This document shows, in pieces, positions 10,626 through 55,155 of a stretch of DNA of 64,000 bases; positions within the stretch are counted from its first letter, which is position 1; each line of letters opens with the position of its first letter. Source of the stretch: Chloroflexota bacterium. GTDB taxonomy: Bacteria > Chloroflexota > Anaerolineae > B4-G1. Both the position numbers and the translations under genes were made by a program. Location of the stretch: contig JAXHUO010000015.1 in the NCBI GenBank assembly GCA_034189605.1, positions 8,321 to 72,320 of the forward strand. The letters run 5' to 3'. The notes under the pieces were generated by a model. It did not search any database. It had not been told where the DNA came from and was given only the letters and a program-made list of their open reading frames with translations.

Positions 10626-10626
10626 A

Positions 10627-31544: not shown

Positions 31545-31579
31545 TTTGTCACTGATCATTTGTCATTTACCCCTTGTCG
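31545..31579. repeat. heptad-phased tract (TTTGTCA-type, TTGTC every 14 nt x3) that supplies the -35 box
   Basis: Units are tttgtca ctgatca tttgtca tttaccc cttgtcg. Intergenic, 5 heptads. Confidence 0.6.
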
Positions 31580-31588
31580 CGTTATAAT
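31560..31588 (+). promoter_or_regulatory. promoter TTGTCA-17-TATAAT, near-leaderless for the fhaA-like gene
   Basis: -35 at 31560-31565 and -10 at 31583-31588. ATG 31600 lies 11 nt after the -10, there is no SD, and the expected 5' UTR is at most ~5 nt. Confidence 0.55.
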
Positions 31589-32405: not shown

Positions 32406-32834
32406 ATGGACATTTTGCTGTTAGCATTGCGCCTCCTGCTTGTTATATTGCTCTACTCTTTTCTGGCTGCGGTGTTGGTGATGCTGTGGCGCGACCTGCG
32501 GCAAGCGACCATCAATCGTGAGGCAGTCCGGCCGGGTGGACGACTGATCATTCTGCAAACAGCGGACGATGCACCCGCCGTAGGCACCACTTTTCCCCTG
32601 CAGCCTATTACCTCGATAGGCCGCTCGCCGAGCAACACACTCTCCATCTCGGATACTTTTGCTTCTGCCCAACACGCCCTGCTGACCTGGCGAGAAGGCC
32701 AGTGGTGGTTGGAGGATCAGGGCAGCCGCAATGGGACAATGCTCAATGACATCTACATCAAAGGCCCCACTGTCGTCAGCACCGGTGATGTCATCGGCGT
32801 GGGACGAATACAACTGAAATTGGAGTTAGAGTGA
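32406..32834 (+). CDS. FhaB-like membrane-anchored FHA domain protein
   Basis: 142 aa with an N-terminal TM helix. FHA core TSIGRSPSNTLSISDTFASAQHALL...GSRNGTMLN. Confidence 0.75.
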   Translation: MDILLLALRLLLVILLYSFLAAVLVMLWRDLRQATINREAVRPGGRLIILQTADDAPAVGTTFPLQPITSIGRSPSNTLSISDTFASAQHALLTWREGQWWLEDQGSRNGTMLNDIYIKGPTVVSTGDVIGVGRIQLKLELE

Positions 32835-33625
32835 TGGACCTGGGATTACACGACAAGGTCGTACTGGTAGCCGCTGCTAGCAAGGGTTTGGGCAAGGCTG
32901 TCGCGCTGTGCCTGGCTCAAGAGGGCGCGCACATTGCCATCTGTGCTCGGGGCGAAGAGCATCTGACCAGTACCGCCGCCGAAATTGAGATGAAGACGGG
33001 CCGCCCTGCGCTGGCTCTCCCGGCCGACGTCTCAGACCCGGCGGCTGCGAATGCGTTGGTCAAGGCCACTGTGGAACGATTCGGACGGATTGATATCCTG
33101 ATCACCAACGCTGGGGGGCCGCCTCCGGGGCAATTCCTGGATCTAACCCCTGACGACTGGGAAACTGCCACACGGATGACGTTGATGAGCGCAGTGCGCC
33201 TCTGTTATGCCATAGTGCCGGTGATGAAGGAACAAGCCGAGGGTTCCATCCTGGCTATGACCTCGGTCAGTGTCAAGCAACCTTTGCCTAACCTCATCCT
33301 ATCCAACAGCCTGCGGTTGGGGGTGATCGGTCTGGTCAAGACATTGGCCGATGAACTGGCCCCCTCCGGTATCCGCGTCAATGGTATCTGCCCTGGCTGG
33401 ACCCGCACAGCACGGGTTGACCAACTCTTGCGCGACAGGGCTGGGCGAAACTCGACTACGCCGGAGGAAGAGGCCGCGAAAATCAAAGCCGCCATCCCTC
33501 TGGGACGGATGGGTACGCCGGAGGAGTTCGCCGCCGCCGCCGCGTTCCTTGTCTCACCCGCCGCCTCCTACATCACCGGCGTCAGCCTGCTCGTGGACGG
33601 GGGAATGTACCGGGGATTGATGTGA
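32831..33625 (+). CDS. SDR family oxidoreductase (FabG-like)
   Basis: 264 aa. Cofactor-site glycine-rich motif region and NAGG. Start overlaps the upstream stop. Confidence 0.85.
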   Translation: MMDLGLHDKVVLVAAASKGLGKAVALCLAQEGAHIAICARGEEHLTSTAAEIEMKTGRPALALPADVSDPAAANALVKATVERFGRIDILITNAGGPPPGQFLDLTPDDWETATRMTLMSAVRLCYAIVPVMKEQAEGSILAMTSVSVKQPLPNLILSNSLRLGVIGLVKTLADELAPSGIRVNGICPGWTRTARVDQLLRDRAGRNSTTPEEEAAKIKAAIPLGRMGTPEEFAAAAAFLVSPAASYITGVSLLVDGGMYRGLM

Positions 33626-35148
33626 GGGATAGTGTGCACTTTGAACGGGGTGACTGGCCCTGGCTGGTGAGTCTGTTGGCCATCGGCTGCCTGATCCTTG
33701 GCGCCTTCGCACTCACTGCCTACCGCTTCACTGGTGGCCAGGGGGGTGTGCCACTGGACGATGCCTGGATCCACTTCCAGTTCGCCCGCAACCTGGCCCG
33801 GGGCGATGGTCTCTCTTTTAACCCCGGTCATCCAACGTCCGGTTCCACAGCGCCGCTGTGGACGCTGCTCCTGGCCGTGATGTGCCTCGTTGGCGGCGAC
33901 TTTCCCGTCGCCGGGCAACTGCTGAGCGGGGCCTGCTTCCTGGCCGTTTTGGTGGTCACCTATGCGCTGGGCAAGCGGTTGACAGGCAGTCGCTGGGCCG
34001 CATGGCTGGCCGGGACGGTCGCCGCCACTAACGGGCGTTTGGTCTGGGCTGGCCTCTCGGCACTAGAGACCTGCCTGTTCGCCGCGTTGAGTATGTTGGC
34101 AATCAGCGCCCACTTGGGCGACCGGGCCACACGCCGTTACCGGCTGCATACGGCAGTCCTCTTTGGGCTAGCCGCGCTGGCCCGTCCCGAAGGCTATCTC
34201 CTTTTCGCGCTGGCCCTGGCCGATTTCCTGTTCGCGCTGATCGCGCAGGGACATGAACCATGGCCTACCCGCTGGCGGCGGCTGCCTATTCTGCCCACCT
34301 TGCTCTTTGCTGCTATCGTGTTTCCTTACCTCTTGTTCTCCCTGCACACCAGCGGTCACCTGCTCCCCAACACCTACCACGCCAAGGCTGTCGTCAACTT
34401 CCTGCCCGGCCGCGATTTTATGAGCGTCGCTGCCAGATACCTGATTCTGGACAACCCGCTGCTGTTACCGTTCTATCTGCTTGGCCTTATCCTGCTGATT
34501 GAGCGGGCGCCTCTCCTAAGCCTGTGGAGCATAGGCTTGCCACTGGCCTACGCCTTCCTCCGCGCCGAACTCTACCAACACGGGCGCTACCTGATGCCCC
34601 TCATTCCCTGCAACACGATCATTGGTGTCGTGGGGCTGCTGGAGGCCCGACGGCTGGCTGCACAACGCGGATACCGCTGGCGCGGTTCCCAGATAGCCAT
34701 CGCAGTGCTGGTCAGTCTGTTCGTCGTCGTCGGAACCGGTTGGCGGCTGCCGGAGATGGCGCACTTTTATACCCAAAATGTGAACGAGATCAACGAGATG
34801 CATGTCGCGCTAGGCCACTGGGTGGCGGAACACACCTCGCCGGATGCAATTCTGGCCTTGAACGATATCGGTGCCATCACCTATATCTCCGAGCGGTCAG
34901 TAGTGGACCTGGCGGGACTGGTCACACCAGAGATCGTTCTGCTTCTGCGCACCCCCGATTGGGATTCGCAACTGGTTGACTTTATGGCTGAGCAAGGCGT
35001 ACAGTACGTCATCATCTTCCCCAATTGGTTCCCCGGCCTGGCTGCCCGGGACGACGTTTTGGAACCGGTGCATCAGGTGACGTTGGAACACAGAAGCATC
35101 GCTGGCGGGGAGACGATGGTCGTCTATCGCGCCCACTGGCGCAGATAG
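33622..35148 (+). CDS. polytopic membrane protein, GT-C-fold glycosyl/arabinosyltransferase-like
   Basis: 508 aa. The early loop LDDAWIHFQFARNLARGDGLSFNPGHPTSGSTAPLW resembles the DxxI..A.N...G.G..FN motif of some GT-C enzymes, from memory. Many TM segments plus a soluble C-terminal domain. GTGA overlap with the SDR gene. Confidence 0.5.
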   Translation: MRDSVHFERGDWPWLVSLLAIGCLILGAFALTAYRFTGGQGGVPLDDAWIHFQFARNLARGDGLSFNPGHPTSGSTAPLWTLLLAVMCLVGGDFPVAGQLLSGACFLAVLVVTYALGKRLTGSRWAAWLAGTVAATNGRLVWAGLSALETCLFAALSMLAISAHLGDRATRRYRLHTAVLFGLAALARPEGYLLFALALADFLFALIAQGHEPWPTRWRRLPILPTLLFAAIVFPYLLFSLHTSGHLLPNTYHAKAVVNFLPGRDFMSVAARYLILDNPLLLPFYLLGLILLIERAPLLSLWSIGLPLAYAFLRAELYQHGRYLMPLIPCNTIIGVVGLLEARRLAAQRGYRWRGSQIAIAVLVSLFVVVGTGWRLPEMAHFYTQNVNEINEMHVALGHWVAEHTSPDAILALNDIGAITYISERSVVDLAGLVTPEIVLLLRTPDWDSQLVDFMAEQGVQYVIIFPNWFPGLAARDDVLEPVHQVTLEHRSIAGGETMVVYRAHWRR

Positions 35149-35253: not shown

Positions 35254-36126
35254 ATGTCTGAAATCCCCATCCGCATCGGCGTCATCGGTGGCAGTGGCCT
35301 CTACCAGATGGAGGGGCTAACCGACGTCGAGGAGCGCCGTATCTCTACCCCCTTCGGCGATCCTTCCGATGCTCTGACCATCGGCACACTAGAGGGAGTG
35401 CGCGTCGTTTTCGTGGCTCGCCACGGCCGGGGACATCGTATCATGCCCACCGAGGTCAACTACCGGGCCAACATCTTTGCTCTCAAGAGCCTGGGCGTAG
35501 AGCAGGTCATCTCCATCTCCGCCTGCGGTTCTCTGCGCGAGCACCTGCACCCCGGCGAGATTGTCATCCCCAACCAGTTGTTCGACTTTACCAAGAAGCG
35601 GGAGTACACCTTCTTTGGGGATGGGCTGGTGGCCCACGTTGGCGTCGCCGATCCGCTCTGCCCGCGCCTCTCGGCTCTCCTGGCCGACGCGGTGGAGGAG
35701 GTCAACAGCACAGTCCATCGAGGCGGGCGTTTCATCACCATAGAAGGCCCTCGCTTCTCCACCAAGGGTGAGAGTTTCACTTACCGTGCCTGGGGGATGG
35801 ACCTCATCGGTATGACGACCTGCCCCGAGGCTTTCCTGGCTCGGGAGGCGGAGATGTGCTATGCGGTAATGGCTCACGTCACCGACTATGATGTGTGGCA
35901 TGAGACAGAGGAGCCGGTCAGCGTCGAGGCGATCATCCGCATCCTTCAGCAGAACACCACCATGGCCCAGCGGGCCGTCCGGCTGCTGGTCCCCCGGCTG
36001 GCTGCCGCCGGGCGCACCTGCGACTGCAAGGACACCCTGACGAACGCCATCATCACCCAACGCGACACCATCCCCGAGCAAGTCAAGCGCGACCTGGTGC
36101 CGATCATCGGAGAGTACCTGGGGTAG
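35254..36126 (+). CDS. mtnP: S-methyl-5'-thioadenosine phosphorylase
   Basis: 290 aa. IGVIGGSGLY, FVARHGRGH, EVNYRANIFALKSLGV and ISACGSL motifs. AAGGAG SD. Confidence 0.9.
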   Translation: MSEIPIRIGVIGGSGLYQMEGLTDVEERRISTPFGDPSDALTIGTLEGVRVVFVARHGRGHRIMPTEVNYRANIFALKSLGVEQVISISACGSLREHLHPGEIVIPNQLFDFTKKREYTFFGDGLVAHVGVADPLCPRLSALLADAVEEVNSTVHRGGRFITIEGPRFSTKGESFTYRAWGMDLIGMTTCPEAFLAREAEMCYAVMAHVTDYDVWHETEEPVSVEAIIRILQQNTTMAQRAVRLLVPRLAAAGRTCDCKDTLTNAIITQRDTIPEQVKRDLVPIIGEYLG

Positions 36127-36243: not shown

Positions 36244-38979
36244 ATGCCAATCACTCTTGCTCCTGCACAGACCAAAGTCGCTCGCCGCGAACGTTTTCTC
36301 CTCCTCATCGCTGCCGCCTTCCTCCTCGCTGGCACCCTCACCCTCGCAGCCCACGATTCTCCATTCTCCATTCTCCATTCTGCATTGGCCATTCTCTCAT
36401 TTATCATCTCTTTCGCCGTGGCTCACTTTTTTCTCTCTCGCTATCTCCCCCACCGTGACCCATTCCTGCTGCCTATGGCAGCGCTCCTGACCGGCTGGGG
36501 GCTCCTGCTCATCGGACGACTGGCGATCAATTTCCTCCTGCGCCAGGCCGCCTGGCTGCTCATATCCACTGCCGCACTCCTGGCCGTCGTTTGGCTGAGC
36601 CACAACCTGCGTTGGCTGCGCCGGTTCCGCTATACCTGGCTCTTTGGGGGGTTGGCGTTACTGGCGGCCACGCTCCTCTTCGGCGTCAATCCCTCTGGCT
36701 ACGGCCCGCGTCTCTGGTTGGGAGCCTGGGGTATCTACTTCCAGCCCTCGGAGCCGCTCAAACTCTTGCTGGTGGTCTACCTGGCCTCTTACCTGGCCGA
36801 GAAACGGGAATTGCTCGTCTCCGAGAGATGGAAAGTGGGACGCTGGCGTCTCCCCCCGTTGGCCTATGTCGGCCCGCTCCTGGCGATGCTCGGGCTGGCG
36901 ACGATACTCCTGGCCTGGCAGCAGGACCTGGGCGCGGCGATACTGTTTTTCTTCACCTTTCTGGCGATGCTCTACCTGGCAACCGGCCAGTGGGAATACA
37001 TCGCCACTGGGCTGGTGCTCTTCCTACTGGTGGGGCTGGCAGGCTACCGGATCTCCGGTCGGGTGGCGCTGCGGATAGATGGCTGGCTCAACCCCTGGCC
37101 GGAGGCGGCCGACCGTGCCTTTCAAATCGTGCAATCACTGCTGGCCTTTGGAACAGGGGGTGTTTTCGGACAGGGGTTGGGGTTGGGCCACCCTGGCTAC
37201 ATCCCTGCCGTGCACACTGACTTTGTCTTCGCCGCCATTGGGGAGGAGTTTGGCCTGGCGGGGACACTGGTCATCGTCGCGTTATACGGGGTGCTGGCTC
37301 TGCGCGGATTCCGCATCGCTGCCCGCGCCTCTCGCCCATTCGAGCGATTCCTGGCTGCGGGTCTCACTGCCGGGTTGGTCATCCAGGCCTGGGTCATCAT
37401 GGCCGGGAACGTAAAACTGGCCCCCATTGCTGGCGTGACTCTCCCCTTTGTCTCCTACGGTGGCAGTTCCCTCCTGACCTGTTTTATCACCCTTGCTCTT
37501 CTCCTCCGCATATCCAGTCCAACGTCCAATGTCCCTAGTCCAAAGTCCAAAGTCCGATACCCGACGTCGCCAGTTCCCTTGTCCCCTTGTCCCCTTGTTC
37601 TCCCCTATCCCCTTCTTCATCTGGCCTGCGCTCTCTCCCTGGCCCTGGCGTTACTGGCAGCCACCTGCGGCTACTGGGGCATCGTCCGCGCTAGTTACCT
37701 GCGCGGACGCGACGACGACCCCCGCCGTGTCCTCTACGAGCAGCACATTGTGCGGGGACGCATCCTGGACCGGGATGGAGCCGTGTTGGCCAACGTGGAT
37801 GTGGCTGGCGACGGGACCGTGACGCGCCACTATCCAATCCCGGAGGCTGCGCCGGCTGTCGGTTACGCCAGTCTGCGCTATGGCACCGGGGGTATCGAAG
37901 CGGCCCTAGACGCCGAACTGCGAGGGGAGGCCAACCGCAGCGATTGGCAGGCCACGTGGGATGAACTGCTTCACCGCCCACCCCACGGTCTTGATGTCCA
38001 ACTGACACTTGATGCAGCGCTGCAGGTGGAATCTCAGGAAGCGCTCGCAGGTCAGGCTGGGGGAGTCGTGCTGCTCGACGCTGCCACTGGCGAGATCCTG
38101 GCTTTGGCCTCAAGCCCCACCTTCGATCCGGCGCGCCTCGACGAGGAATGGGAGAGATTGAGTGAAGACCTATCCGCGCCGCTGGTTAACCGCGCTACGC
38201 AGGGTCTCTACCAGCCAGGGGCTGCCCTCCAGACCATTGTCCTGGCCGAGGCACTGAACGAGAGACTGGACAGTCTCTCAACCCCAATCACCAACGCGAC
38301 AGCGACGCTTAGCGTGAACGGCGCGCGGCTGGGCTGCAGCACGGCTCTCTCTGAGCCATACACGCTGGCCGATGCCTACGCTGCTGCTTGCCCGGCACCT
38401 TTCGCGGATTTGGGTGAGCGGTTAGGAGCCACTGGGCTGGTAGAGATGGTAGATCATTGGACACTCACCACTCCGCCCTCATTGGAGATCCCGACCGAGG
38501 CGGCCGACTGGAACGCGAAAGTGCTCTCGACCACGGCAGCAGTGCGGGCCGAGGCCATAGGTCAGGGGAGGCTGACTGTCTCACCACTACAGATGGCGCT
38601 GGTGGCAGGGGCGCTCGCCAATGAGGGACAAATGCCTGCTCCGCGTTTGGTGCTCCGTGTTCAAGATATGGAGGGAGGCTGGCGAGAACATAGTAGCGCC
38701 GCGTTATCCAGCACCGTCATCTCGCCGGCGATAGCCAAAAGTATGTTGGGTGCCTGGCCGGCATACGGTTCGACCACCTCCACCGCAGGCAGCTCAGACG
38801 TGATGGGGCACTATGGAGTGGCCATCGCGGGACAGAAACAAGAACCTCACGTCTGGTTCCTGGGTGTAGCACCGGCCAAAGCCCCGCGCTATGCCATCGC
38901 CGTGCTTATTGAGCGAGCCGCCGATCCTCAGCAGGCTGTCATAGTTGGCACGGCTCTGCTGCGAGCAGCGTCCCGGTAG
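36244..38979 (+). CDS. fusion protein: SEDS (FtsW/RodA) peptidoglycan polymerase plus class B PBP-like domain with degenerate transpeptidase motifs
   Basis: 911 aa. The SEDS part has FQPSEPLKLLLV, PAVHTDFVFAAIGEEFG and LPFVSYGGSSLL. A low-complexity linker spans ~37500-37620. The PBP part aligns with PbpA-type proteins, but SxxK reads AALQ, SxN reads ACP and KTG reads QKQ. Confidence 0.85.
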   Translation: MPITLAPAQTKVARRERFLLLIAAAFLLAGTLTLAAHDSPFSILHSALAILSFIISFAVAHFFLSRYLPHRDPFLLPMAALLTGWGLLLIGRLAINFLLRQAAWLLISTAALLAVVWLSHNLRWLRRFRYTWLFGGLALLAATLLFGVNPSGYGPRLWLGAWGIYFQPSEPLKLLLVVYLASYLAEKRELLVSERWKVGRWRLPPLAYVGPLLAMLGLATILLAWQQDLGAAILFFFTFLAMLYLATGQWEYIATGLVLFLLVGLAGYRISGRVALRIDGWLNPWPEAADRAFQIVQSLLAFGTGGVFGQGLGLGHPGYIPAVHTDFVFAAIGEEFGLAGTLVIVALYGVLALRGFRIAARASRPFERFLAAGLTAGLVIQAWVIMAGNVKLAPIAGVTLPFVSYGGSSLLTCFITLALLLRISSPTSNVPSPKSKVRYPTSPVPLSPCPLVLPYPLLHLACALSLALALLAATCGYWGIVRASYLRGRDDDPRRVLYEQHIVRGRILDRDGAVLANVDVAGDGTVTRHYPIPEAAPAVGYASLRYGTGGIEAALDAELRGEANRSDWQATWDELLHRPPHGLDVQLTLDAALQVESQEALAGQAGGVVLLDAATGEILALASSPTFDPARLDEEWERLSEDLSAPLVNRATQGLYQPGAALQTIVLAEALNERLDSLSTPITNATATLSVNGARLGCSTALSEPYTLADAYAAACPAPFADLGERLGATGLVEMVDHWTLTTPPSLEIPTEAADWNAKVLSTTAAVRAEAIGQGRLTVSPLQMALVAGALANEGQMPAPRLVLRVQDMEGGWREHSSAALSSTVISPAIAKSMLGAWPAYGSTTSTAGSSDVMGHYGVAIAGQKQEPHVWFLGVAPAKAPRYAIAVLIERAADPQQAVIVGTALLRAASR
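36356..36397. repeat. heptanucleotide tandem repeat, 6 units (42 nt), in-frame at the SEDS N-terminus
   Basis: Units are attctcc attctcc attctcc attctgc attggcc attctct. The tract encodes (D)SPFSILHSALAIL. Confidence 0.85.
37517..37600. repeat. heptanucleotide tandem repeat (6 units, 37517-37558) followed by an 8-nt TCCCCTTG-type repeat, forming the SEDS-PBP linker
   Basis: gtccaac gtccaat gtcccta gtccaaa gtccaaa gtccgat, then ...gttcccttg tccccttg tccccttg ttc. Together they encode SPTSNVPSPKSKVRYPTSPVPLSPCPLVL. Confidence 0.85.
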
Positions 38980-43451: not shown

Positions 43452-46400
43452 ATGAACGGTATTTTGCGTATCCTTATCCTTGGCGACACCTCAGAATGGC
43501 GCACCCTGGGCATGCCTGAACTGGACTGGGAGATTCCTGATTTCCAGGTGCAGCAGATTACTGAAGCGAAAGGCTTTGCCCAGGCTCTGGAGGGAGGCAA
43601 TTTCGACCTGGTGATCGCCGATTGCCGGCTACAGTGGGCGGACGGCATGGAAGTCATACGCATGGTCGTATCCCGCTGGCCCGAGTGCCCAGTGATTATG
43701 CTCGCGGATACCAGCACTGAGGAGATCGCCGCGGAGGCGATACAGGCTGGGTTGGTGGACGACTATGTCATCAAATCGCCTGAGCACTTTGCTCGCCTAC
43801 CGGTCGTGGCCTTGTTAACCCTGCAGCGGGCACGGCAGCGTCAATCATTGAAGGAGGCCAATGCCCGCTACCGGAGTTTGTTTGATGGTGTGCCTGTGGC
43901 CCTCTACCGGACCACGCCGGATGGAAAGGCTCTGGACGCTAACCTTACCCTGGTGCAGATGCTGGGTTACCCCAACCGGGAGTCACTGCTGGCGGTCAGC
44001 GCATCCGACGTGTATGTGAACCCTGAGGATCGCCAGCGATGGCAGGCTCTGATGGATCGCGAGGGGGTCGTGCGCGACTTTGAGATGCAATTGCGCCAGT
44101 GTGACGGAACGGTCATCTGGGTGCGGGATAGCGCCCACACTGTCTGTGATTCCGATGGTCAGGTGTTGTACTACGAGGGCTTTATGGAGGACATCACCGC
44201 GCGCAGGCGAGTGGAGGAAAAAGAAAGACAGTACATCCATGACCTGGCGCGTCTGTCAAAAAGTGCAATGGAGTTTGTTGATCTTCCACCTGAGGAGGAC
44301 ATCTACTGGTTCATAGGAAACTGTCTAAAAGAAATCGTGGGCGACGCTATTGTCATTGTCAGTTCGTTCGACGTGGCGTCGGACACTTTTTGTGTCCGTG
44401 CGGTCTCAGGGATTGAGGGGCGGATTGAGGTGCTCATTGAGATACTGGGGAGCGACCTCGTTGGGAGATCATTTGTGGTAGGGGGTAAAGTAAAGCCCGC
44501 CCCCACCGCTGGCAGGCTGGTAGAAATCCCTTGGGACCTGTACGAGTTTTCTTCCAGGCGAGTACCAAAGGGTGTCTGCCAGGTGCTTGAGAGAGTCTTT
44601 AACCTGGGCGACATATATGTGATGGGGTTTTTCAGGAAAGGGGAACTGTTTGGCAGCGCTGTTATCATGATGCATAGGGGCGCTGAACTGAAGAATCCAG
44701 GCATCGTAGAGACATTCATAAACCAGGCGTCGGTTGCCCTGCAGCGCAAGCAGGCGGAGGAGAGCCTGCGCCGCGAGCGCGACTTTTCCCAAAACATCAT
44801 TGAGACTACCCCAGCGCTGGTCGTGATGCTGGATGCCGGTGGACGCATCACCATGCTCAATCGGGCGTGTGAGGAACTCACAGGTTATACCGCAGCCGAA
44901 GCGATCGGACAGGAGATATCCAAGTTCCTGATCCCCGCACGGTTTGTCCAGGATGAGCATAAAGTCTTCTCCAGCCTGCAGGCTGGTGTGCCGCCCGGTA
45001 ACTATGAAATTCCATTACTCACCAGAGATGGCAATGAGCGCTGGATTACCTGGACCTATGCCGACGTCAAGGATGAGGCTGGGAATGTGACCTCGATCGT
45101 CGGCATCGGCGTTGATGTGACAGACTTTCGGCGTGTGCAGCAGGCCTTGGAGCGACGCAACCGCGAGCTGCAGGCTTTGGTGGAGGCAGGGCAGTTGCTC
45201 TCGGGTACGTTGAATCTAGACCAAGTATTGGATCGCCTGCTTGATGTAGTACAAAAGCAGTTCAATATGGCTAGCGTATCCTTCTCATCCTATGACCCTG
45301 ACCGGCAGATGTTTGAGATTCGGGCGCAGCGCTATGATGCCCCAGAGCACCAGGTTGGACGGATAGGTGATCGCCGCACGCGGGATCAGCATCCATATTC
45401 GAGCCGGGCCTTGGATACTGGCCAACCGGTCTATGAGCCCGACCTGTGGAATGCCCCCCACATCTCCGAGGAGAAACAGGCCGAAGCACGGGGGAAGAAC
45501 ATCCGCAGTGTCGTGGAAGTGCCATTGATTGCCAAGAGTCAGCCAGTGGGTGTGCTGCACCTGCGTTCTTTCGAGACCCCGCGTTTCTTCACTGAGGAGG
45601 AACTTGCTTTCGCCCGCGCCATTGCGCCGGGAGCGGCTGCCGCGATAGACAATGCTCGGTTGTACAGGCGATTGGAGCAGCGAATACAGGAGATCAGTAC
45701 CCTCTATCACGCCGGACAGGTGCTTACAGGCGTGATTGACATGGAGCGGTTGCTTCACTTTGTGATCGAGGCGGCCGTTGGTGTGCTCCCGAGTGCAGAG
45801 AAGGGCACCATTCAACTCTATGATAGGGAGAGCGATATGCTGGTGGCCCGGGCTGGGATAGGGTATTCCGAACAGGAGTTGGCCCAGATGCGTTTCTTGC
45901 CTGATGCCAGCGTCGCTGGTCAGTGTTTTACCACTGCCAAGCCTTGGGTAGTGGACGACACCACCGATGATCCCTATTTCCAGCACGTAGGCCCACCGGT
46001 GGTAGGTAGGATTCGCTCAATGGTAGCCGTGCCTTTGGTGAGCAAAGGCCGTTCTATTGGTGTGTTTTGTGTGGATAATCTCTCCACCACGAGTGCATTT
46101 GCTGCCGATGCTGTGCGTGTGCTGAGCACCCTGGCGGCCCAGGCTGCTGCGGCGATTGAGGCGGCCCGCCTGTTCACGGAGGTAGATGCCGCGCGCGCAC
46201 GGGCTGAAGGACTGGCCGCGCGGGTGGTACAGGCTCAGGAAGATGAACGTCGGCGTATTGCCCGTGAACTGCACGATGAGGTGGGGCAGTTACTGACCGG
46301 TGCCAAACTCAGTCAGGAGATGTTGGTGGCGGACTTGCCTGCTGAACTGGCAGAGTTACGAGAGCGGGCGCTCGAAAACGTGGACTTGATTGACGAGACG

Positions 46401-46862
46401 ATGGATGTGGTGCGCAAACTCTCGCTTGATCTGCGCCCGGCAGCGCTGGATGAACTGGGGTTACCGGCAGCCCTCGAATGGCATATCGAACGTTACCAGC
46501 ATCAGACCGGCTTGCGGGTCACCTTACACCAGGGACTGCTTCCCACGTTGCCCGACTCCCTGGCTACAGCGGTGTATCGCATTATCCAGGAGGCGCTGAC
46601 CAACGTCGCACGCCATGCCTCTGCTAAATCGGTCATGGTGGAAGTGGAGCATACTAGTCCGAGTCTGTGTGTGCGGGTGACGGATGATGGCTGTGGTTTC
46701 GACGTTGCGGCTGTCTTGCGGGCAGGCTCGGCCGAGGAACGTTTTGGCCTGATGGGACTGGAGGAGCGCGCCACGCTTCTGGGCGGCAAGGTGAACATTG
46801 AATCGGCCCCCGGGCAGGGGACCAGGATTGCGGTCGAGTTGCCGCTGCCGGAGCGTGAGTGA
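43452..46862 (+). CDS. multidomain sensor histidine kinase (N-terminal REC, PAS, GAF x2, HisKA_3, HATPase_c)
   Basis: 1136 aa. REC-like N-terminus (LVIADCRL...DYVIKSP), PAS segments, GAF-like segments, H-box RIARELHDEVGQ and an ATPase domain with a GQGT G2 box. Confidence 0.85.
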   Translation: MNGILRILILGDTSEWRTLGMPELDWEIPDFQVQQITEAKGFAQALEGGNFDLVIADCRLQWADGMEVIRMVVSRWPECPVIMLADTSTEEIAAEAIQAGLVDDYVIKSPEHFARLPVVALLTLQRARQRQSLKEANARYRSLFDGVPVALYRTTPDGKALDANLTLVQMLGYPNRESLLAVSASDVYVNPEDRQRWQALMDREGVVRDFEMQLRQCDGTVIWVRDSAHTVCDSDGQVLYYEGFMEDITARRRVEEKERQYIHDLARLSKSAMEFVDLPPEEDIYWFIGNCLKEIVGDAIVIVSSFDVASDTFCVRAVSGIEGRIEVLIEILGSDLVGRSFVVGGKVKPAPTAGRLVEIPWDLYEFSSRRVPKGVCQVLERVFNLGDIYVMGFFRKGELFGSAVIMMHRGAELKNPGIVETFINQASVALQRKQAEESLRRERDFSQNIIETTPALVVMLDAGGRITMLNRACEELTGYTAAEAIGQEISKFLIPARFVQDEHKVFSSLQAGVPPGNYEIPLLTRDGNERWITWTYADVKDEAGNVTSIVGIGVDVTDFRRVQQALERRNRELQALVEAGQLLSGTLNLDQVLDRLLDVVQKQFNMASVSFSSYDPDRQMFEIRAQRYDAPEHQVGRIGDRRTRDQHPYSSRALDTGQPVYEPDLWNAPHISEEKQAEARGKNIRSVVEVPLIAKSQPVGVLHLRSFETPRFFTEEELAFARAIAPGAAAAIDNARLYRRLEQRIQEISTLYHAGQVLTGVIDMERLLHFVIEAAVGVLPSAEKGTIQLYDRESDMLVARAGIGYSEQELAQMRFLPDASVAGQCFTTAKPWVVDDTTDDPYFQHVGPPVVGRIRSMVAVPLVSKGRSIGVFCVDNLSTTSAFAADAVRVLSTLAAQAAAAIEAARLFTEVDAARARAEGLAARVVQAQEDERRRIARELHDEVGQLLTGAKLSQEMLVADLPAELAELRERALENVDLIDETMDVVRKLSLDLRPAALDELGLPAALEWHIERYQHQTGLRVTLHQGLLPTLPDSLATAVYRIIQEALTNVARHASAKSVMVEVEHTSPSLCVRVTDDGCGFDVAAVLRAGSAEERFGLMGLEERATLLGGKVNIESAPGQGTRIAVELPLPERE

Positions 46863-46872
46863 GACCATTCTT

Positions 46873-47532
46873 ATGAATGCGGTTCGTGTGTTGTTAGCCG
46901 AAGATCATCATTTGGTGCGCCAGGGCCTACGAGCATTGCTGGAGAGAGACTCGGACATTGAGGTCGTGGGAGAGGCGGCCGATGGATTGGAGGCTCTTCA
47001 CCTGATCGAAGAGATCCAGCCCGACGTCGTGGTGATGGACATCACTATGCCTGGCTTGAATGGACTGGAAGTGTTGCGGCGTGTCCGCCAGCGATTGCCA
47101 GAGGTACGGGTGCTGATGCTCTCGGTGCACGAGGGAGGGGCATATGTCCTGCGTGCACTACAGGCTGGCGCCTCCGGTTATCTGCTCAAGCGTTCGCTCA
47201 GCGCCGAGTTGTTGCTGGCGATTCGCGCAGCCCAACGCGGTGAGGTGTTCCTCAGCCCAGCCGTATCGCAAATCATTATCACCCGCGTTCTCCAGGGCAT
47301 ATCCCCTGAGGAGGGCAAGACCCCATACGACAGGTTGACGCCTCGCGAGCGCGAGGTGTTCCAACTTATCGCCGAAGGGTATACCAATCAGGCGATTGCG
47401 CACCGGCTGACCATCAGTGTGCGCACTGTTGAGACACACCGCGCCCATCTGATGGATAAACTGGACATCCACGATGTGGCTGGACTGACCCGGTTGGCCA
47501 TTCAGTTGGGTTTGGTCGAGTCTGTTGGGTGA
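46873..47532 (+). CDS. response regulator, NarL/LuxR family
   Basis: I prefer ATG 46873 (the track starts at 46798, inside the kinase gene). VLLAEDHHLVRQGL, DVVVMDITMPGLNG and a C-terminal LuxR HTH (LTPREREVFQLIAEGYTNQAIA). Confidence 0.9.
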   Translation: MNAVRVLLAEDHHLVRQGLRALLERDSDIEVVGEAADGLEALHLIEEIQPDVVVMDITMPGLNGLEVLRRVRQRLPEVRVLMLSVHEGGAYVLRALQAGASGYLLKRSLSAELLLAIRAAQRGEVFLSPAVSQIIITRVLQGISPEEGKTPYDRLTPREREVFQLIAEGYTNQAIAHRLTISVRTVETHRAHLMDKLDIHDVAGLTRLAIQLGLVESVG

Positions 47533-47550: not shown

Positions 47551-49998
47551 TTATCCTCCGTACAGTGCCCTGTAGACTGCCCAGTGCTCTTTGATGCGCT
47601 GGATGTAGAGACGTGGTTCGTGCAGGGTGATGAGTTCGAGGAACAGGTCGGGGTCGTCGCCGGCAGCCTCCAGCCAGCGCTCGGCGCGGAAAGGGCCCCC
47701 ATTGTAGGCTGACAGCGCTACGTCCAGGCGGTTATCGAAGCGGTAGTATTGTTGCGCCAGGTAGTAGGTGCCAAAGCGCAGGCTGACGTAGGGGAGGTAT
47801 AGGTCGGCAGTCTTATAGTCCGGCGGCCAGTCCAGTTCGGTGGCTATCTGTGCGCCGGTGGGGGGAATCACCTGCATCAGCCCGTGAGCGCTGGCGGTGG
47901 AGGTGGCGAGGCTCTCGAAGAGGCTCTCCTGCCGGATGAGGGCGAAGACGAGAAGCGGGTCGAGATCGTTCGCGTGAGCGTTCTGCAGCACCAGATCCTC
48001 GTGGTAGGTGGGGTAGGCCAGACGGGCGATGAAGGCTGGGGCCTCAATGGTGGTGGCAACCGGGGAGAGGTGCACGACTCTCGTGGCGCAGAGGATGGAG
48101 GAGCGGTAGAGACCGATGTCGCGGAATAGAAGCGCCAGTTGGTACTGGGCCAGCGCGTCCGACCTGGTGTCATAGCGGAGGGATTCCAGTTCCCATTTGG
48201 CCTCCTCAAAGCAGCCCAATCGCCATAATTCCAGGCCACGTTGGAGGTGGGGTGTAGCGACGAGGTCGGGATCCAGCAGGGGCGGGGTCACCCCGCTTTC
48301 ACCCAGATCCAATCCCAGCCACCCGGCCAACCACTCCTCCGCCTCGGCCTGGGCTGTGACGGCATCATAGTCGGGTCTGTACCGGGTGGGTGAGAAAGAC
48401 GGAGAGGGCGGGTCGGCGATCAGATCAACGGCACGCAGACCATAGTAACTGGTGGGGTCAGCGGTGCTGGCCTCCTCGAAGGCGGCCGAGGCCGCCTCGT
48501 TGTCTTCCTGGGCCAGGCTGAGTTTGCCCAGCCAGAGGAGGGCCGCGGGGTTATAGGGGGAAGTGGGGTAGGCGGCGACCAGCGTATCCCAGGCGGCAGC
48601 GGCGTCCTCTAACTCGTCCAGTTGATAGGATTGCAGCCCGCTGCGGAAGAGGGCCGGAGGGCCATAATCGGAATCGGGATAGGCGGTGTGGCAGTCCAGG
48701 TAAGCTGCTGCCGCGGCTTCCAGTTCGCCAGCCCGCTCCAGGAGTTGGGCCGCTTCCCAAAGTGCCTCCGGTGCACGGGAGTGATCAGGGGCAGCGGTGG
48801 CGAATTCCCAGTAGGTGATGATGGCGGCGTGGGTATCGCCAGCATCATCCTGGGCCTCGGCCAGGTCCATCCAGGCATCACCCCAGTGCTCGTTCTCCGG
48901 CTGGGCCTCGATCAATGTCTGGAACTCACCCGCAGCCAGATTGGGGCTCCCGGCGGCCAGGTACGCCCGGCCCGCATACCAATGGGCGTCTCCAGAGTAG
49001 GTCTCGGGGTTGGCGCGTATATAACGGTGAAAGGCCTCGACCGCCGGGCCGTAGGCTCCCCCGTAATAGTCCACCACGCCGCGCAGAAAGTCGTCCACCG
49101 TCCGTCCGGCCTCCACCAGTTCGACCAGTGAGAGGTAGGCATAGTGCTCAGTGGAATAGTCCTCGACGACGGCCAGGTGGCGGTCGTAGCCAGCCTCGGT
49201 CTCCCCGGCCAGGATGAGCGTCTCAGCAGCCTGGTGCTCAATGCGGGCGCGGTAGGCGCGTATCTGTGCTATGTCGAGGATAGCGTCGTACTGGGCGATG
49301 GCGGCGGGGTAATTCTCCAGGGCAACCTGGGTGAGGGCCAGTTTCTCACGCACGCCGACCTCGAAGGAACGGTCGGGAACCTCAGCGAGGGCGGCCTCGT
49401 AGGCTCTGACGGCCGGGAGGTAGTCGCCGCCAGCGTGGAAGGCATCCCCCAGCCGTTGGTTCACGTAGGCGGTGATGACCGTCCCGGCGGAAAGATAGGC
49501 CTGGTATTCTTCAGTCGCCGTCAGCGGTTCGCCTGTACCAACGAGAGCCTCGGCCAGCAGGAAGTGGCCGTCGGGGGCCAGGTCACTTTCGGGATAGGCA
49601 TCCAGAAAATCGCGGAGGGCGTCGGCGGCGCTGAGGTAATCGCCAGCGCGCAGGTAGGCCGTGCCCAGGCCAATCTGAGCCTGGGCTGTGCTTTCCCTGT
49701 CAAGAGGGAGGGCCAGCAGGCCACGATAAGCATCGGCGGCGGTCTCATAGTCGCCATCCTGCAGCGCTTGCGTGGCGTCAGAGAGCCATTCGCCGGGGTC
49801 GGGGGTGGGGGTCGGCGTGGAAGTGGGCGTGGGAGCAGGTGTGGAGGTGGGCGTGGGGGTGGGGGTGGGAGTGAGAGTGAGTGTGGGGGTGGCGGTGGCA
49901 AAGAGTGGCGGTGGTGTTAGGTAGGAGGGTACGTTGCAAGCCAGCGCTGCCGCGATCAGTGTGGAGAGAGCCCAAAGGGCCAGTTTCGGTCGGCGCAT
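47551..49998 (-). CDS. TPR-repeat lytic transglycosylase (SLT domain)
   Basis: I prefer ATG 49998 (MRRPKLALWAL signal peptide). Pro/Thr linker, long TPR region and a C-terminal SLT domain (LIRQESLFES, AHGLMQV, YNGG). Confidence 0.8.
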   Translation of the reverse strand: MRRPKLALWALSTLIAAALACNVPSYLTPPPLFATATPTLTLTPTPTPTPTSTPAPTPTSTPTPTPDPGEWLSDATQALQDGDYETAADAYRGLLALPLDRESTAQAQIGLGTAYLRAGDYLSAADALRDFLDAYPESDLAPDGHFLLAEALVGTGEPLTATEEYQAYLSAGTVITAYVNQRLGDAFHAGGDYLPAVRAYEAALAEVPDRSFEVGVREKLALTQVALENYPAAIAQYDAILDIAQIRAYRARIEHQAAETLILAGETEAGYDRHLAVVEDYSTEHYAYLSLVELVEAGRTVDDFLRGVVDYYGGAYGPAVEAFHRYIRANPETYSGDAHWYAGRAYLAAGSPNLAAGEFQTLIEAQPENEHWGDAWMDLAEAQDDAGDTHAAIITYWEFATAAPDHSRAPEALWEAAQLLERAGELEAAAAAYLDCHTAYPDSDYGPPALFRSGLQSYQLDELEDAAAAWDTLVAAYPTSPYNPAALLWLGKLSLAQEDNEAASAAFEEASTADPTSYYGLRAVDLIADPPSPSFSPTRYRPDYDAVTAQAEAEEWLAGWLGLDLGESGVTPPLLDPDLVATPHLQRGLELWRLGCFEEAKWELESLRYDTRSDALAQYQLALLFRDIGLYRSSILCATRVVHLSPVATTIEAPAFIARLAYPTYHEDLVLQNAHANDLDPLLVFALIRQESLFESLATSTASAHGLMQVIPPTGAQIATELDWPPDYKTADLYLPYVSLRFGTYYLAQQYYRFDNRLDVALSAYNGGPFRAERWLEAAGDDPDLFLELITLHEPRLYIQRIKEHWAVYRALYGG

Positions 49999-50004
49999 GG
50001 TTCT

Positions 50005-50033
50005 ATTATCGCCGAGAGGGGCGAGTTTGTCAA
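50005..50033 (-). promoter_or_regulatory. consensus promoter TTGACA-17-GATAAT placing the TSS on the ATG of the lytic transglycosylase gene (leaderless)
   Basis: On the minus strand, -35 at 50033-50028, a 17-nt spacer, and -10 at 50010-50005. Six nt later comes ATG at 49998-49996, with no SD. Confidence 0.6.
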
Positions 50034-50051
50034 CTGGGGGCATCTCGATAG

Positions 50052-53540: not shown

Positions 53541-53569
53541 TTGACAATGTTCCTGGGATGTGATATTCT
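53541..53569 (+). promoter_or_regulatory. candidate promoter (TTGACA-17-TATTCT)
   Basis: -35 at 53541-53546 and -10 at 53564-53569. GGAGG at 53582-53586 lies 6 nt before GTG 53593. Confidence 0.5.
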
Positions 53570-53592
53570 CTCTCGACCGGTGGAGGTGTGGT

Positions 53593-55155
53593 GTGGCGAG
53601 AGGCGGGGATAGGTTGTGGGTGGCCGCAGTTACGGCACTGGGCGGCTACCTGCGGGCCTGTCAGATCGGTGGCAAAGGGCTCTGGATAGACGAGGCGTTC
53701 AGTGTCTGGCTGGGCTGGCAACCTGTGGGGGAGATGTTGGGCTGGCTGGTCCGCATTGACCAGCATCCGCCACTCTACTATCTACTGCTGCACTTTTGGA
53801 TGATCCTCGGCGATGACCCATCTACCGTGCGCGCACTCTCCGCTCTGTGCGGCACGCTGACCATCCCCGTGGTTTACCTGCTGGGCCGCCGCCTGGCCGG
53901 CGACAAGGTAGGGTTCCTCACTGCGCTGATCCTGGCTGTTTCCCCTTTCCACGTGCGCTTTGCCCAGGAGACGCGCATGTACACGCTGCTGACGCTGAAC
54001 GCTTCGCTGGCGCTGTATGCGCTGGCCTGGTTGTTCACTGACCCCCGCTCGGCCGAAGCACGGCTGGGCCGGCAGTTCGTAGACTTTTGGCGGGGCTGGC
54101 GAACCACCCGTCGCCGCCCTCCCATGTGGGTCATTGAGACCGACCTGGCCTGGCTGGGTTACGTGCTCTTCACGGCGGCGATGCTGTTGACTCATAACAC
54201 AGCAGTCTTCTTTCCCGTCGCCACAAATATTATCGTGCTGCTCTTGGTCCGCCTGCGAATCGCGAATCGCGAATCACGAATCACGAATCACGGGTTCTTA
54301 CGCAACTGGCTCCTGGCCCAGGTAGGCGTGTTTCTGTTATGGAGCCTCTGGCTCCCGGCCTTTGCCGTCCAGGGCGTAGGTGTCTACCGGGAGTTCTGGC
54401 TGCCTGCGCCAACGTGGAGCACTGTCGCCGGCGCGGTAGGGGCCTTTGTGAGCGACTTCCTGCCGTTGCCGCCCGCCGGTCTCTGCGCGGTAGGGGTGCT
54501 GTACGCGGGGTTGGCGCTACTGGGGCTGGTTCACTTCCGCCGCCGTCCGGCGCACGTCTTGTTTCTGCTCGTCACCTTCACAACGCCATTCGTGGGCGAG
54601 TGGCTGGTCAGCCTATACCGGCCCATCTTTTACGATCGCACGCTCATCTGGGCATCGCTCCCGCTTTACCTGCTGCTGGCCGCTGGCATACGCCAGTTGC
54701 ATCACCGGTCTTATATTATCGGCGTCATTCTGGTGGTGCTGGTGGTCAACACCCTTTCGCTGCGGGAGTATTACGTCAACTTCGAGAAGGAGCAGTGGGA
54801 TGACGCAGCACTGTTTGTGGCGGGGCGGGTGGAGGCCGGTGACTTGATTCTGTTTAATGCTACCTGGACGCAGATTCCATTTGACTATTACTTTCGCCGG
54901 TACGAGCGATCGGTGGCCGAGCACGGCGTGCCGGTGGATTTGTTTGACCGGGGTGTCCTGGAGCCAGAGATGTCTACAGACGATCTCCCCCGGCTGCGGG
55001 TGCTCGTCCGGAGCCACGAACGAGTGTGGTTGGTCTACAGCCACGACTGGTACACTGATCCGCAGGGATTGATCCCCCTGGCGTTGGAGGAGGAACTTGA
55101 TCTGCTCGACCGGTGGGACTTTTATGGCCTGCAGGTGCGGCTGTACGGGAGATAG
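53593..55155 (+). CDS. glycosyltransferase family 39-like (ArnT/PMT_2) membrane protein
   Basis: I prefer GTG 53593, because the track start at 53560 overlaps the predicted -10. GLWIDEAFSVWL and HPPLYYLLLHFW are typical of PMT_2-type GT-C enzymes. A soluble C-terminal domain follows. Confidence 0.75.
   Translation: MARGGDRLWVAAVTALGGYLRACQIGGKGLWIDEAFSVWLGWQPVGEMLGWLVRIDQHPPLYYLLLHFWMILGDDPSTVRALSALCGTLTIPVVYLLGRRLAGDKVGFLTALILAVSPFHVRFAQETRMYTLLTLNASLALYALAWLFTDPRSAEARLGRQFVDFWRGWRTTRRRPPMWVIETDLAWLGYVLFTAAMLLTHNTAVFFPVATNIIVLLLVRLRIANRESRITNHGFLRNWLLAQVGVFLLWSLWLPAFAVQGVGVYREFWLPAPTWSTVAGAVGAFVSDFLPLPPAGLCAVGVLYAGLALLGLVHFRRRPAHVLFLLVTFTTPFVGEWLVSLYRPIFYDRTLIWASLPLYLLLAAGIRQLHHRSYIIGVILVVLVVNTLSLREYYVNFEKEQWDDAALFVAGRVEAGDLILFNATWTQIPFDYYFRRYERSVAEHGVPVDLFDRGVLEPEMSTDDLPRLRVLVRSHERVWLVYSHDWYTDPQGLIPLALEEELDLLDRWDFYGLQVRLYGR
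54255..54296. repeat. heptanucleotide tandem repeat, RCGAATC x5 plus one degenerate unit (42 nt), in-frame in the GT39-like gene
   Basis: Units are gcgaatc gcgaatc gcgaatc acgaatc acgaatc acgggtt. The tract encodes RIANRESRITNHGF. Confidence 0.85.

Follow-up and report, generated by a model that had tools for sequence, protein, structure and literature searches.

[quoted passage not shown] We propose that this natural pseudo-transpeptidase is probably kept, in tethered form, to activate or scaffold its SEDS polymerase, with cross-linking taking place elsewhere. As judged by sequence comparison, the dead-site family is a large, old clade of the class Anaerolineae that extends over hundreds of related genomes. 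To our knowledge, laboratory point mutants have until now been the only means of separating the two jobs of a class B PBP, cross-linking and the switching on of its SEDS partner; the dead clade would represent a natural, ancient and selected separation of both, here within one polypeptide. It offers a ready system in which to ask how a SEDS enzyme responds to the pedestal and transmembrane (TM) module alone, what use is made of a transpeptidase fold without chemistry, and how cells avoid futile synthesis when the partner of a polymerase cannot cross-link. SEDS–PBP fusions as such are already known, and no report of a conserved dead-site clade was found in open-access papers and preprints, searches of which also yielded nothing relevant on natural dead bPBPs or on the wall enzymology of Anaerolineae.

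A SEDS polymerase fused to a PbpA-type protein

The modules of the fusion follow one another in the order SEDS polymerase, linker, TM anchor, PbpA-type pedestal and pseudo-transpeptidase (Table 1), and the same three-domain architecture is present in 119 of 119 full-length homologues at 62–84% identity. A preliminary description of the DNA had read the gene as a SEDS protein joined to a class B PBP, and the Pfam matches (PF01098, PF21922 and PF00905) agree. The SEDS half covers positions 35–353 of the 356 in the PF01098 profile (E 3.9e-76, 256.8 bits against a cut-off of 26.4); the NCBIfam models for FtsW, RodA and SpoVE all match it too, each below its own equivalog cut-off, so that neither FtsW nor RodA is given as its subtype, and its alignment partners are P. 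aeruginosa FtsW (8bh1) and RodA (6pl5, 6bar and 8tj3). The conserved motifs that had been noted in this half are indeed retained, with QPSE, HTDF and SYGGSS invariant in 110 homologues, and we regard the SEDS half as an intact predicted peptidoglycan polymerase.

Table 1 Features of the fusion gene and its upstream neighbours in the window
Feature	Coordinates	Strand	Residues	Basis or remark
fhaA	31600–32403	+		FhaA_N + FHA (Pfam)
fhaB-like gene	32406–32834	+		TM + FHA (Pfam)
MTAP-like nucleoside phosphorylase gene	35254–36126	+		PF01048, E 2e-46; 117-bp gap to fusion gene
SEDS–PBP fusion gene	36244–38979	+	911 aa	Single uninterrupted ORF
SEDS (FtsW/RodA/SpoVE) glycosyltransferase domain	36526–37521	+	aa 95–426	PF01098 (FTSW_RODA_SPOVE), E 4e-76
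SEDS motif QPSE	36742–36753	+		Aligned to P. aeruginosa FtsW
SEDS motif HTDF	37213–37224	+	includes D326	Aligned to P. aeruginosa FtsW
SEDS motif SYGGSS	37453–37470	+		Aligned to P. aeruginosa FtsW
Low-complexity Ser/Pro/Thr-rich linker	37522–37605	+	aa 427–454	Cytoplasmic location inferred
TM anchor helix of PBP module	37606–37704	+	aa 455–487	Continuous helix in AF2 model
PbpA-type pedestal (PBP_dimer_2)	37705–38058	+	aa 488–605	PF21922 at aa 504–585, E 8e-12
Pseudo-transpeptidase (transpeptidase-fold domain without catalytic residues)	38059–38922	+	aa 606–893	PF00905, E 2e-27
SxxK-equivalent	38221–38232	+	A660-A-L-Q663	PDB alignments (STFK/SSFK); active relatives carry PGSTFK
Cys698	38335–38337	+	C698	Conserved partner of Cys716 (38389–38391)
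SxN-equivalent	38386–38394	+	A715-C-P717	PDB alignments (SSN), active relatives
KTG-equivalent	38809–38817	+	H856-Y-G858	PDB alignment, active relatives

Between the two halves, the linker lacks secondary structure in the AF2 model (pLDDT about 50) and has a mean identity of only 40%; the stretch at aa 418–466 measures 29–76 aa across homologues and contains SPKS(E/K)VR-like repeats. Because the C terminus of the SEDS domain is inside in the known SEDS topology, the linker is expected to be cytoplasmic. The TM anchor has the hydrophobic sequence YPLLHLACALSLALALLAATCGYWGIV and a mean identity of 71% among homologues. Anchor, PF21922 pedestal and PF00905 transpeptidase fold together assign this half to the PbpA subtype of class B PBPs, and PF03717, the PBP2/FtsI-type pedestal, is matched only at E 0.076. 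The pedestal at aa 488–605 is presumed to be the SEDS-activating module.

Colinearity of the C-terminal half with PbpA-type proteins, which had been proposed earlier, is upheld by alignments to 4mnr, 4n1x and Mtb PbpA (3lo7/3un7) with E values of 1e-38 to 1e-39. The AF2 model of the fusion has a mean pLDDT of 81, with most of the transpeptidase-like part above 90, and its best Foldseek matches are Mtb PbpA, which is thus among the best partners in both sequence and structure, and PbpA-type structures of Eggerthella and Atopobium (TM 0.80–0.83). On the strength of the model, the PBP half is confidently predicted to have the PbpA fold.

All three transpeptidase motifs are lost

Class B PBPs carry the catalytic triad SxxK, SxN and K(T/S)G, in place of which the fusion has AALQ, ACP and HYG. 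The STFK or SSFK of solved bPBPs aligns to AALQ, with Ala at the position of the nucleophile Ser and Gln at that of the general-base Lys, and their SSN aligns to ACP, so that both of these replacements are found where the preliminary description had put them. It was also right that KTG is lost, but the Q-K-Q that it took for the site (38833–38841) is not the equivalent: the true site is H-Y-G, 8 residues upstream, where 'dvaGKTGtae' is matched with 'dvmGHYGvai' in the PDB alignment and the GGKTGTA of active relatives with MGHYGVA. The pseudo-transpeptidase has therefore had its nucleophile Ser, its general-base Lys, the Ser and Asn of SxN and the Lys and Thr of KTG replaced. A regular-expression scan of aa 453–911 found neither S..K nor K[TS]G, as first described, and the sole S.N (S690-V-N) lies away from the motif position; the scan, together with the profile and structure alignments, rules out an alternative catalytic triad elsewhere in the domain. 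On its residues, the PBP half is a family homologue and not a functional penicillin-binding transpeptidase, and both covalent beta-lactam binding and D,D-transpeptidase activity are predicted to be absent.

The dead domain is shared and under selection

The substitutions are common to all 119 other clusters at 62–84% identity and to all 119 clusters of the Thermoflexus-type subfamily. Orthologues were thus found to share them, as the preliminary description had suggested checking, in 238 of 238 other close fused protein clusters. Among the best 150 divergent representatives from an exhaustive HMMER search (50% clustering), about 130 carry them, and this search, not the genome scan, is the unbiased check on prevalence. 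The genome scan used a 12-sequence alignment and two search patterns; all 80 species-representative loci retrieved (80 of 509 matched) were degenerate, a result that is partly built in because one of the patterns was the degenerate motif itself.

Values of dN/dS are 0.04–0.13 for the SEDS domain, 0.07–0.25 for the pedestal and 0.09–0.34 for the pseudo-transpeptidase: the dead domain and the pedestal are under purifying selection. Mean identity is 74% in the pedestal versus 65% in the transpeptidase-like domain, and the pedestal carries 11 of the 20 columns that are invariant across 50 divergent family members. At the former SxxK Ser, 122 degenerate representatives have Gly, Leu, Ala, Thr, Ser or Met, and at the Lys, 89 of them have Gln (73) or Glu (16). 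The Ser of SxN has become Gly in 53 and Ala in 37, the Cys is kept in 119 and the Asn is replaced by Pro in 113, and the Lys of KTG is His in 72 of the 122 and in 110 of the 119 Thermoflexus-type clusters. By these counts, catalytic positions are relaxed and structural ones are fixed.

Three lost motifs in metagenome-type sequence are an oddity that might raise the thought of sequencing or assembly errors, or of a PBP half decaying as the relic of a once-active fusion. Nothing beyond that oddity speaks for either, and we consider the chance negligible: the 911-codon frame is intact, an identical protein is present on an independent assembly (L001), hundreds of independent assemblies have the same substitutions, and the dead domain combines a low dN/dS with a confidently predicted fold. 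Conservation and dN/dS rule out both a sequencing error and a pseudogene. The carriers are mostly uncultured, and no cultured strain was named among the matches to a Thermoflexus-type member used as query.

Active and unfused relatives

Active fused relatives (for example, the P0144 group) are found in the same gene neighbourhood of other Anaerolineae, where they occupy an mtap-linked or fhaAB-linked slot: in one locus (L086), fhaA and fhaB homologues stand directly before the active fused relative, and another active relative (P0274) has an MTAP-like gene upstream. A neighbour-joining tree of the PBP domain splits active from degenerate proteins with 75% bootstrap, and a tree of the SEDS domain has no such split. 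A single loss of catalysis is likely and two losses are possible.

Dead PBPs also occur unfused. These are distant relatives encoded directly after a SEDS gene, and in at least 17 loci a separate SEDS gene lies directly upstream of a dead PBP gene with gaps of −10 to +115 bp. Since catalysis has been lost in unfused rodA–pbpA pairs too, the loss is not a consequence of fusion; and because the SEDS and PBP genes overlap or lie a few bases apart in many loci, fusion would take no more than a small change at their junction.

Proposed function and alternatives

A non-catalytic, tethered activator or scaffold is the most likely role for the PBP half, and it fits everything computed, namely selection, PbpA fold and relaxed catalytic positions. 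In RodA–PBP2 and FtsW–FtsI complexes, the TM helix and pedestal of the bPBP contact and activate the SEDS protein. By homology with bPBPs, which act in this way on RodA and FtsW, the TM helix and pedestal of the fusion would remain docked to the SEDS domain and hold the polymerase in its active state, with the pedestal as the presumed source of activation. The dead domain should be unable to form an acyl-enzyme and would, for that reason, neither cross-link nor bind beta-lactams covalently; what keeps it may be a scaffolding role, or the ability to bind nascent strands or stem peptides without catalysis. We assume that cross-linking is done by another enzyme, which could be another, recruited bPBP, a class A PBP or an L,D-transpeptidase; a Pfam scan of 31 ORFs in the window found no other PBP or L,D-transpeptidase. 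An E. coli polymerase without its transpeptidase engages in futile synthesis, with degradation of the uncross-linked strands (mecillinam literature), and given this risk a dead partner must be compensated somehow.

Where Lys, Asn and Lys once stood, the replacing Gln, Pro and His are fairly conserved, a counterpoint to a passive scaffold, and the pocket may consequently have a specific new role. The scaffold model could be refined, rather than opposed, by supposing that the remodelled pocket is a ligand sensor for a peptidoglycan stem peptide, a D-Ala-D-Ala terminus or a nascent strand, whose non-covalent binding gates the fused polymerase or hands strands to a partner transpeptidase. The replacements counted above are non-random, the motif-flanking residues Y656-Q-P-G659, G773-Q-G775, A860, G863 and W871-F-x-G874 are at least 97% conserved in close homologues, and the domain has a dN/dS well below 1, all of which would suit a sensor. 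Active PBPs, however, also rely on these flanking residues as structural elements of the fold, and conservation there is no proof of binding; the former nucleophile and SxN Ser positions vary freely. Sensing is a refinement that we hold to be doubtful. Of similarly low probability is the wider idea that Anaerolineae run one SEDS machine with an ex-enzyme partner as its pure regulator or ligand sensor, the Gln/Pro/His pocket sensing stem peptides or nascent strands and gating the polymerase, and all cross-linking of the product being left to other enzymes such as L,D-transpeptidases or class A PBPs. If true, it would make the synthase intrinsically insensitive to beta-lactams.

Two further readings are much less likely. 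The domain might be a neo-functionalised enzyme with a different nucleophile, such as a Cys716–His856 dyad, and perform a new peptidoglycan reaction, for example as an L,D-type transpeptidase, an endopeptidase or an amidase. L,D-transpeptidases use Cys–His chemistry, and both residues are highly conserved in the degenerate clade (C716 in 119 of 122 representatives, with C698 in 120). Yet about 40% of divergent representatives have Tyr, Gln, Leu or Phe in place of His856, and the middle residue of SxN faces away from the catalytic centre in the transpeptidase fold. Many active relatives with SCN, moreover, have Cys at both the 698 and 716 positions, so the pair did not arise together with the loss of serine chemistry. 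This occurrence in active PbpA relatives leads us to judge a new dyad very unlikely. The equivalent of Cys716 in Mtb PbpA presumably forms a disulfide, and on that basis C698–C716 is probably a structural disulfide that active PbpA enzymes have as well. We give hardly any credence to the other reading, that the synthase makes an uncross-linked or differently anchored glycan, for example a specialised wall layer or septal material, for which no transpeptidase partner is needed. Only indirectly in its favour are the lack of a transpeptidase in the operon and of a second PBP-type domain within 10 kb in 80 related loci (a search of PBP-type domains only); the carriers, too, belong to Anaerolineae, whose described members are filamentous. 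Against it, such a polymer is without evidence, uncross-linked strands are normally degraded, and other Anaerolineae carry active relatives at this locus, so the ancestral product was arguably ordinary cross-linked peptidoglycan. A tethered activator or scaffold remains the reading that we prefer.

Comparison with known systems

SEDS–bPBP fusions have been published as putative 'bifunctional class B synthases', including proteins of 931 aa from Senegalimassilia faecalis and 947 aa from Rhodococcus jostii (Microlife 2025, PMC12516126). These proteins resemble ours in their order (SEDS, pedestal/PbpA-dimer, transpeptidase) and their size (about 900–950 aa), and the survey sorted proteins by domain content and left active-site motifs aside. 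Unlike them, the Anaerolineae clade is predicted to be incapable of bifunctionality because the transpeptidase triad is gone, a caution that domain content alone is insufficient to annotate SEDS–PBP fusions as 'bifunctional synthases'.

Engineered proteins offer a parallel: catalytically dead PBP2b of B. subtilis (PMC5656894, cited in PMC12713402) and SpoVD S311A of C. difficile (PMC12713402) still function with their SEDS partners, and PBP3 cross-links. The PBP half would be like them in lacking transpeptidase activity yet supporting its SEDS partner, presumably allosterically (PMC12713402, PMC5656894). Those are laboratory point mutants of enzymes that are otherwise active, whereas the loss in Anaerolineae is natural, affects all three motifs, and is ancient and clade-wide. 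Compared with RodA–PBP2 and FtsW–FtsI (6pl5, 8tj3 and 8bh1), the SEDS half aligns and shares the conserved Asp of HTDF, but the pedestal is of the short PbpA type and not of the PBP2/FtsI type, and the polymerase is covalently joined to its catalytically dead partner.

The locus also recalls the actinobacterial cluster fhaA-fhaB-pstP-rodA-pbpA-pknA-pknB. Both combine a PbpA-type pedestal (PF21922) with a transpeptidase fold, have the SEDS gene directly upstream or fused, and have fhaA and fhaB upstream on the same strand; the SCN Cys and its partner Cys of actinobacterial PbpA are likewise retained in the dead clade. They differ in that all transpeptidase catalytic residues are replaced in the dead clade, that RodA and PbpA are here one polypeptide, and that an MTAP-like gene takes the position of pstP. 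PP2C phosphatase and Ser/Thr kinase genes, moreover, are absent among the scanned window neighbours and the Pfam-annotated neighbours of related loci. Three other genes separate fhaA-fhaB from the fusion gene in the window; about 25 of 80 related loci have fhaA/fhaB-like homologues upstream of, and on the same strand as, their SEDS/pseudo-PbpA genes, and by analogy with the actinobacterial cluster these homologues suggest control via Ser/Thr phosphorylation. In 53 related loci, the SEDS gene or fusion is immediately preceded by the MTAP-like gene. In the relatives inspected, the operon ends after the PBP gene and convergent genes follow.

The SEDS–PbpA fusion lacks transpeptidase motifs

[quoted passage not shown] The same description held that all three transpeptidase motifs had been replaced. 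Motif coordinates were confirmed by translation, and alignments with active relatives gave identical placement of all three motifs: the SxxK and SxN sites lie where they had been put, and KTG is also lost, but at H856-Y-G858 rather than at the Q-K-Q of 38833-38841 that had been proposed. A pattern scan of residues 453-911 returned zero matches to S..K or K[TS]G, bearing out the claim that the domain holds no alternative motif. The SEDS half retains QPSE, HTDF (D326) and SYGGSS, as had been noted; these align to the equivalent motifs of P. aeruginosa FtsW and are invariant among 110 homologues. Given the SxxK and SxN placements, the absent alternatives and the SEDS motifs, the earlier observation was therefore right except for the position of the third motif.

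Features of the fusion gene, its product and its neighbours (window positions)
Feature	Position	Strand	Details
fhaA	31600-32403	+	FhaA_N + FHA
fhaB-like gene	32406-32834	+	TM + FHA
Short-chain dehydrogenase		+	between fhaB-like gene and 508-aa membrane protein
508-aa polytopic membrane protein	33622-35148	+	no Pfam match at E 1e-3
MTAP-like phosphorylase	35254-36126	+	PF01048; directly upstream of fusion
Fusion gene	36244-38979	+	one uninterrupted ORF, 911 aa
FTSW_RODA_SPOVE	aa 95-426		Pfam, E 4e-76
PBP_dimer_2 (PbpA-type pedestal)	aa 504-585		Pfam, E 8e-12
Transpeptidase	aa 606-893		Pfam, E 2e-27
SxxK site	38221-38232	+	A660-A-L-Q663 (STFK/SSFK in active enzymes)
SxN site	38386-38394	+	A715-C-P717 (SSN in active enzymes)
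KTG site	38809-38817	+	H856-Y-G858
MFS transporter			after fusion gene, convergent

The NCBIfam models FtsW, RodA, SpoVE and PBP2 all match the fusion, each under its equivalog cut-off; the protein is a SEDS family member, and its PBP half is a homologue of bPBPs without functional membership. Public annotation of these Anaerolineae proteins reads ‘FtsW/RodA/SpoVE family cell cycle protein’ or ‘FtsW/FtsI’. An AlphaFold2 model built on an alignment of 110 homologues (mean pLDDT 81, pTM 0.66) comprises a helical membrane bundle, disorder at residues 425-454, a long helix at 455-487 and then a confident periplasmic module, whose transpeptidase-like part mostly exceeds pLDDT 90. Its best Foldseek matches in the PDB were M. 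tuberculosis PbpA (3upp, 3un7, 3lo7) and PbpA-type structures from Eggerthella and Atopobium (TM 0.80-0.83 on the target, 26-30% identity). Because the C terminus of SEDS proteins is cytoplasmic, the modules follow the order SEDS, cytoplasmic linker, bPBP membrane anchor, and periplasmic pedestal plus transpeptidase fold, a coherent arrangement in terms of topology.

The two halves are joined by a cytoplasmic linker (37522-37605, + strand) that is of low complexity and rich in Ser, Pro, Thr and Lys, with SPKS(E/K)VR-like repeats in homologues of the fusion. Its length differs among close homologues (29 to 76 aa for the stretch at residues 418-466), and its sequence could provide phosphorylation sites for FHA proteins.

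The degenerate site is widespread and the domain is selected

A close-homologue search covering 5.8 billion proteins returned 119 other clusters at 62-84% identity to the fusion protein, all with the same three domains. These homologues share the substitutions: 119/119 clusters are degenerate at all three motifs, reading PG[A/T/S/V/G]xx[Q/E], xCP and H[W/Y/L..]G. All 119 clusters of a second subfamily, centred on a Thermoflexus MAG protein, are degenerate as well. In an exhaustive HMMER search with one representative per 50%-identity cluster, 909 representatives had E-values of 1e-30 or lower. Of the top 150, about 130 show the same kind of degeneration and 16 retain intact STFK/SCN/KTG. Scanning one genome per GTDB species gave 509 loci, of which the best 80 all belong to class Anaerolineae lineages (Anaerolineales, Thermoflexales, Ardenticatenales, Ca. 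Leptofilum and Ca. Hadersleviella) and are degenerate in 80/80 cases, in a scan biased to such members by the use of the degenerate motif itself as one of its two search patterns.

Mean identity to the fusion protein falls from 82% in the SEDS domain to 74% in the pedestal and 65% in the transpeptidase-like domain, and is 40% in the linker. Across ten pairs of 80-90% identity, Nei-Gojobori dN/dS is 0.04-0.13 for SEDS, 0.07-0.25 for the pedestal and 0.09-0.34 for the dead transpeptidase-like domain, which is therefore maintained by selection. This low ratio, together with an identical protein on an independent assembly and substitutions common to the 119 clusters, excludes sequencing error or decay. 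Our data thus show an intact polymerase tethered to a well-folded, selected bPBP module devoid of any residue of the acyl-enzyme mechanism.

Loss of catalysis is not tied to fusion

The fused form occurs in 46 of the best 80 of the 509 matched loci; this group comprises the closer relatives, most of which carry the label Anaerolineae, Anaerolineales, Thermoflexales or Thermoflexus. In at least 17 of the best 80 loci, a separate SEDS gene is directly followed, at gaps of -10 to +115 bp, by a gene for a dead PBP on its own (~450 aa). Because the dead PBP is also found unfused, loss of catalysis is not tied to fusion. Many SEDS/PBP gene pairs abut or overlap by a few bases, so that a minor alteration where they meet would be enough for fusion.

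Some fused relatives are active. The group around representative P0144 (P0272-P0279, two labelled Anaerolineae bacterium) has STFK, SCN and KTG, and the gene for its member P0274 follows immediately on the same MTAP-like gene that precedes the fusion studied here; another active fused protein, P0288, directly follows fhaA-fhaB. Active fused SEDS-PbpA proteins with all three motifs intact are found in other Anaerolineae/Chloroflexota assemblies at loci L084 and L087-L089 (P0144 group), L085 and L086, in part at the same mtap- or fhaAB-linked position.

Separate neighbour-joining trees of the PBP and SEDS domains, rooted on an active member, place active sequences at the base and degenerate ones as derived, with fused and unfused members interleaved. 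The PBP-domain tree separates active from degenerate members at 75% bootstrap, a split that the SEDS-domain tree does not recover. We read these sequence relationships as suggesting one, possibly two, ancient losses of catalysis within the group and several fusion or fission events. One fused group (P0280, P0281, P0283 and P0287) is degenerate in another way, with PGSLVQ / GCPVT / GLL. It is placed differently by the SEDS tree and the PBP tree, a hint that catalysis may have been lost a second time or that domains may have been exchanged.

Residues at the dead site and proposed function

Among 122 divergent degenerate representatives, the former nucleophile Ser of SxxK is Gly in 41, Leu in 19, Ala in 17, Thr in 16, Ser in 14 and Met in 8, and its Lys is Gln in 73 and Glu in 16. 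The Ser of SxN has become Gly (53) or Ala (37) and its Asn is Pro in 113/122, with Cys between them in 119/122; the Lys of KTG is replaced by His (72), Tyr (15) or others. Chemically essential positions are thus relaxed and structural positions retained. A second cysteine, C698, is kept in 120/122.

The reading that we consider probable is that the transmembrane helix and pedestal would still activate the SEDS domain, by analogy with what bPBPs do for RodA and FtsW, while the dead domain would act as a scaffold or bind non-covalently, with another enzyme supplying the cross-links. Engineered dead PBP2b of B. subtilis and SpoVD S311A of C. difficile are functional with their SEDS partners while PBP3 cross-links (PMC12713402; PMC5656894, as cited there). 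The moderately conserved Gln, Pro and His at the dead site may leave room for a non-catalytic binding role; that the remodelled pocket is a sensor, a refinement of the scaffold or binder reading, seems to us doubtful. New Cys-His chemistry in the dead domain is very unlikely. The pair of C698 and the SxN cysteine also occurs in many active relatives with SCN and is therefore no novelty of the dead clade; it is probably structural, and in M. tuberculosis PbpA the SxN cysteine reportedly forms a disulfide.

A 2025 catalogue lists SEDS-bPBP fusions, SEDS-PbpA-dimer-TPase proteins among them, as putative bifunctional class B synthases; it rests on domain content only, with active-site motifs not examined (PMC12516126). 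A full-text search of open-access papers and preprints turned up no account of a PbpA clade that is dead by nature. Naturally occurring, conserved pseudo-transpeptidases that partner a SEDS polymerase, here by fusion, are real and partly new. In them the regulatory and catalytic roles of a bPBP would have been separated by nature.

Gene neighbourhood

In 53 related loci (L003-L089) the SEDS gene or fusion is immediately preceded by a homologue of the MTAP-like gene. In about 25 related loci fhaA-fhaB lie upstream of the synthase genes, and they also directly precede an active fused relative in L086. In several relatives the whole operon is fhaA-fhaB-mtap-SEDS-deadPBP, followed by convergent genes. 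Actinobacteria have the cluster fhaA-fhaB-pstP-rodA-pbpA-pknA-pknB; the Anaerolineae operon parallels it in having fhaA-fhaB upstream, but no phosphatase or kinase gene was seen in it. The 508-aa membrane protein is kept between fhaB and the MTAP-like gene in six close relatives (L008, L015, L016, L018, L020 and L034), and a strong promoter-like match (11/12) immediately ahead of fhaA spans 31560-31588.

The 31 window ORFs scanned with Pfam contained no other PBP or YkuD domain, and the 10-kb flanks of related loci no second PBP-type domain. A gene 8.6 kb downstream of the fusion (47551-50043, - strand) encodes a secreted TPR protein of 830 aa that carries an SLT lytic-transglycosylase domain at its C terminus. 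Lytic transglycosylases of the SLT type degrade uncross-linked glycan strands in E. coli; a link of this protein to the dead-transpeptidase synthase is speculative. A hybrid sensor kinase (REC-PAS-PAS-GAF-GAF-HisKA_3-HATPase, 1136 aa) and then a LuxR-type response regulator occupy 43452-47532 (+). Many envelope glycosylation genes lie at 370-12669, 53560-55155 and 60724-63858 (all +), encoding a TMEM260-like O-mannosyltransferase, a GT4 glycosyltransferase, an epimerase/dehydratase and a 1156-aa TPR protein, and further a WecA/MraY-type GT4, a UDP-glucose dehydrogenase, a PMT_2 protein and a 1044-aa Wzy_C (O-antigen-ligase-like) protein.
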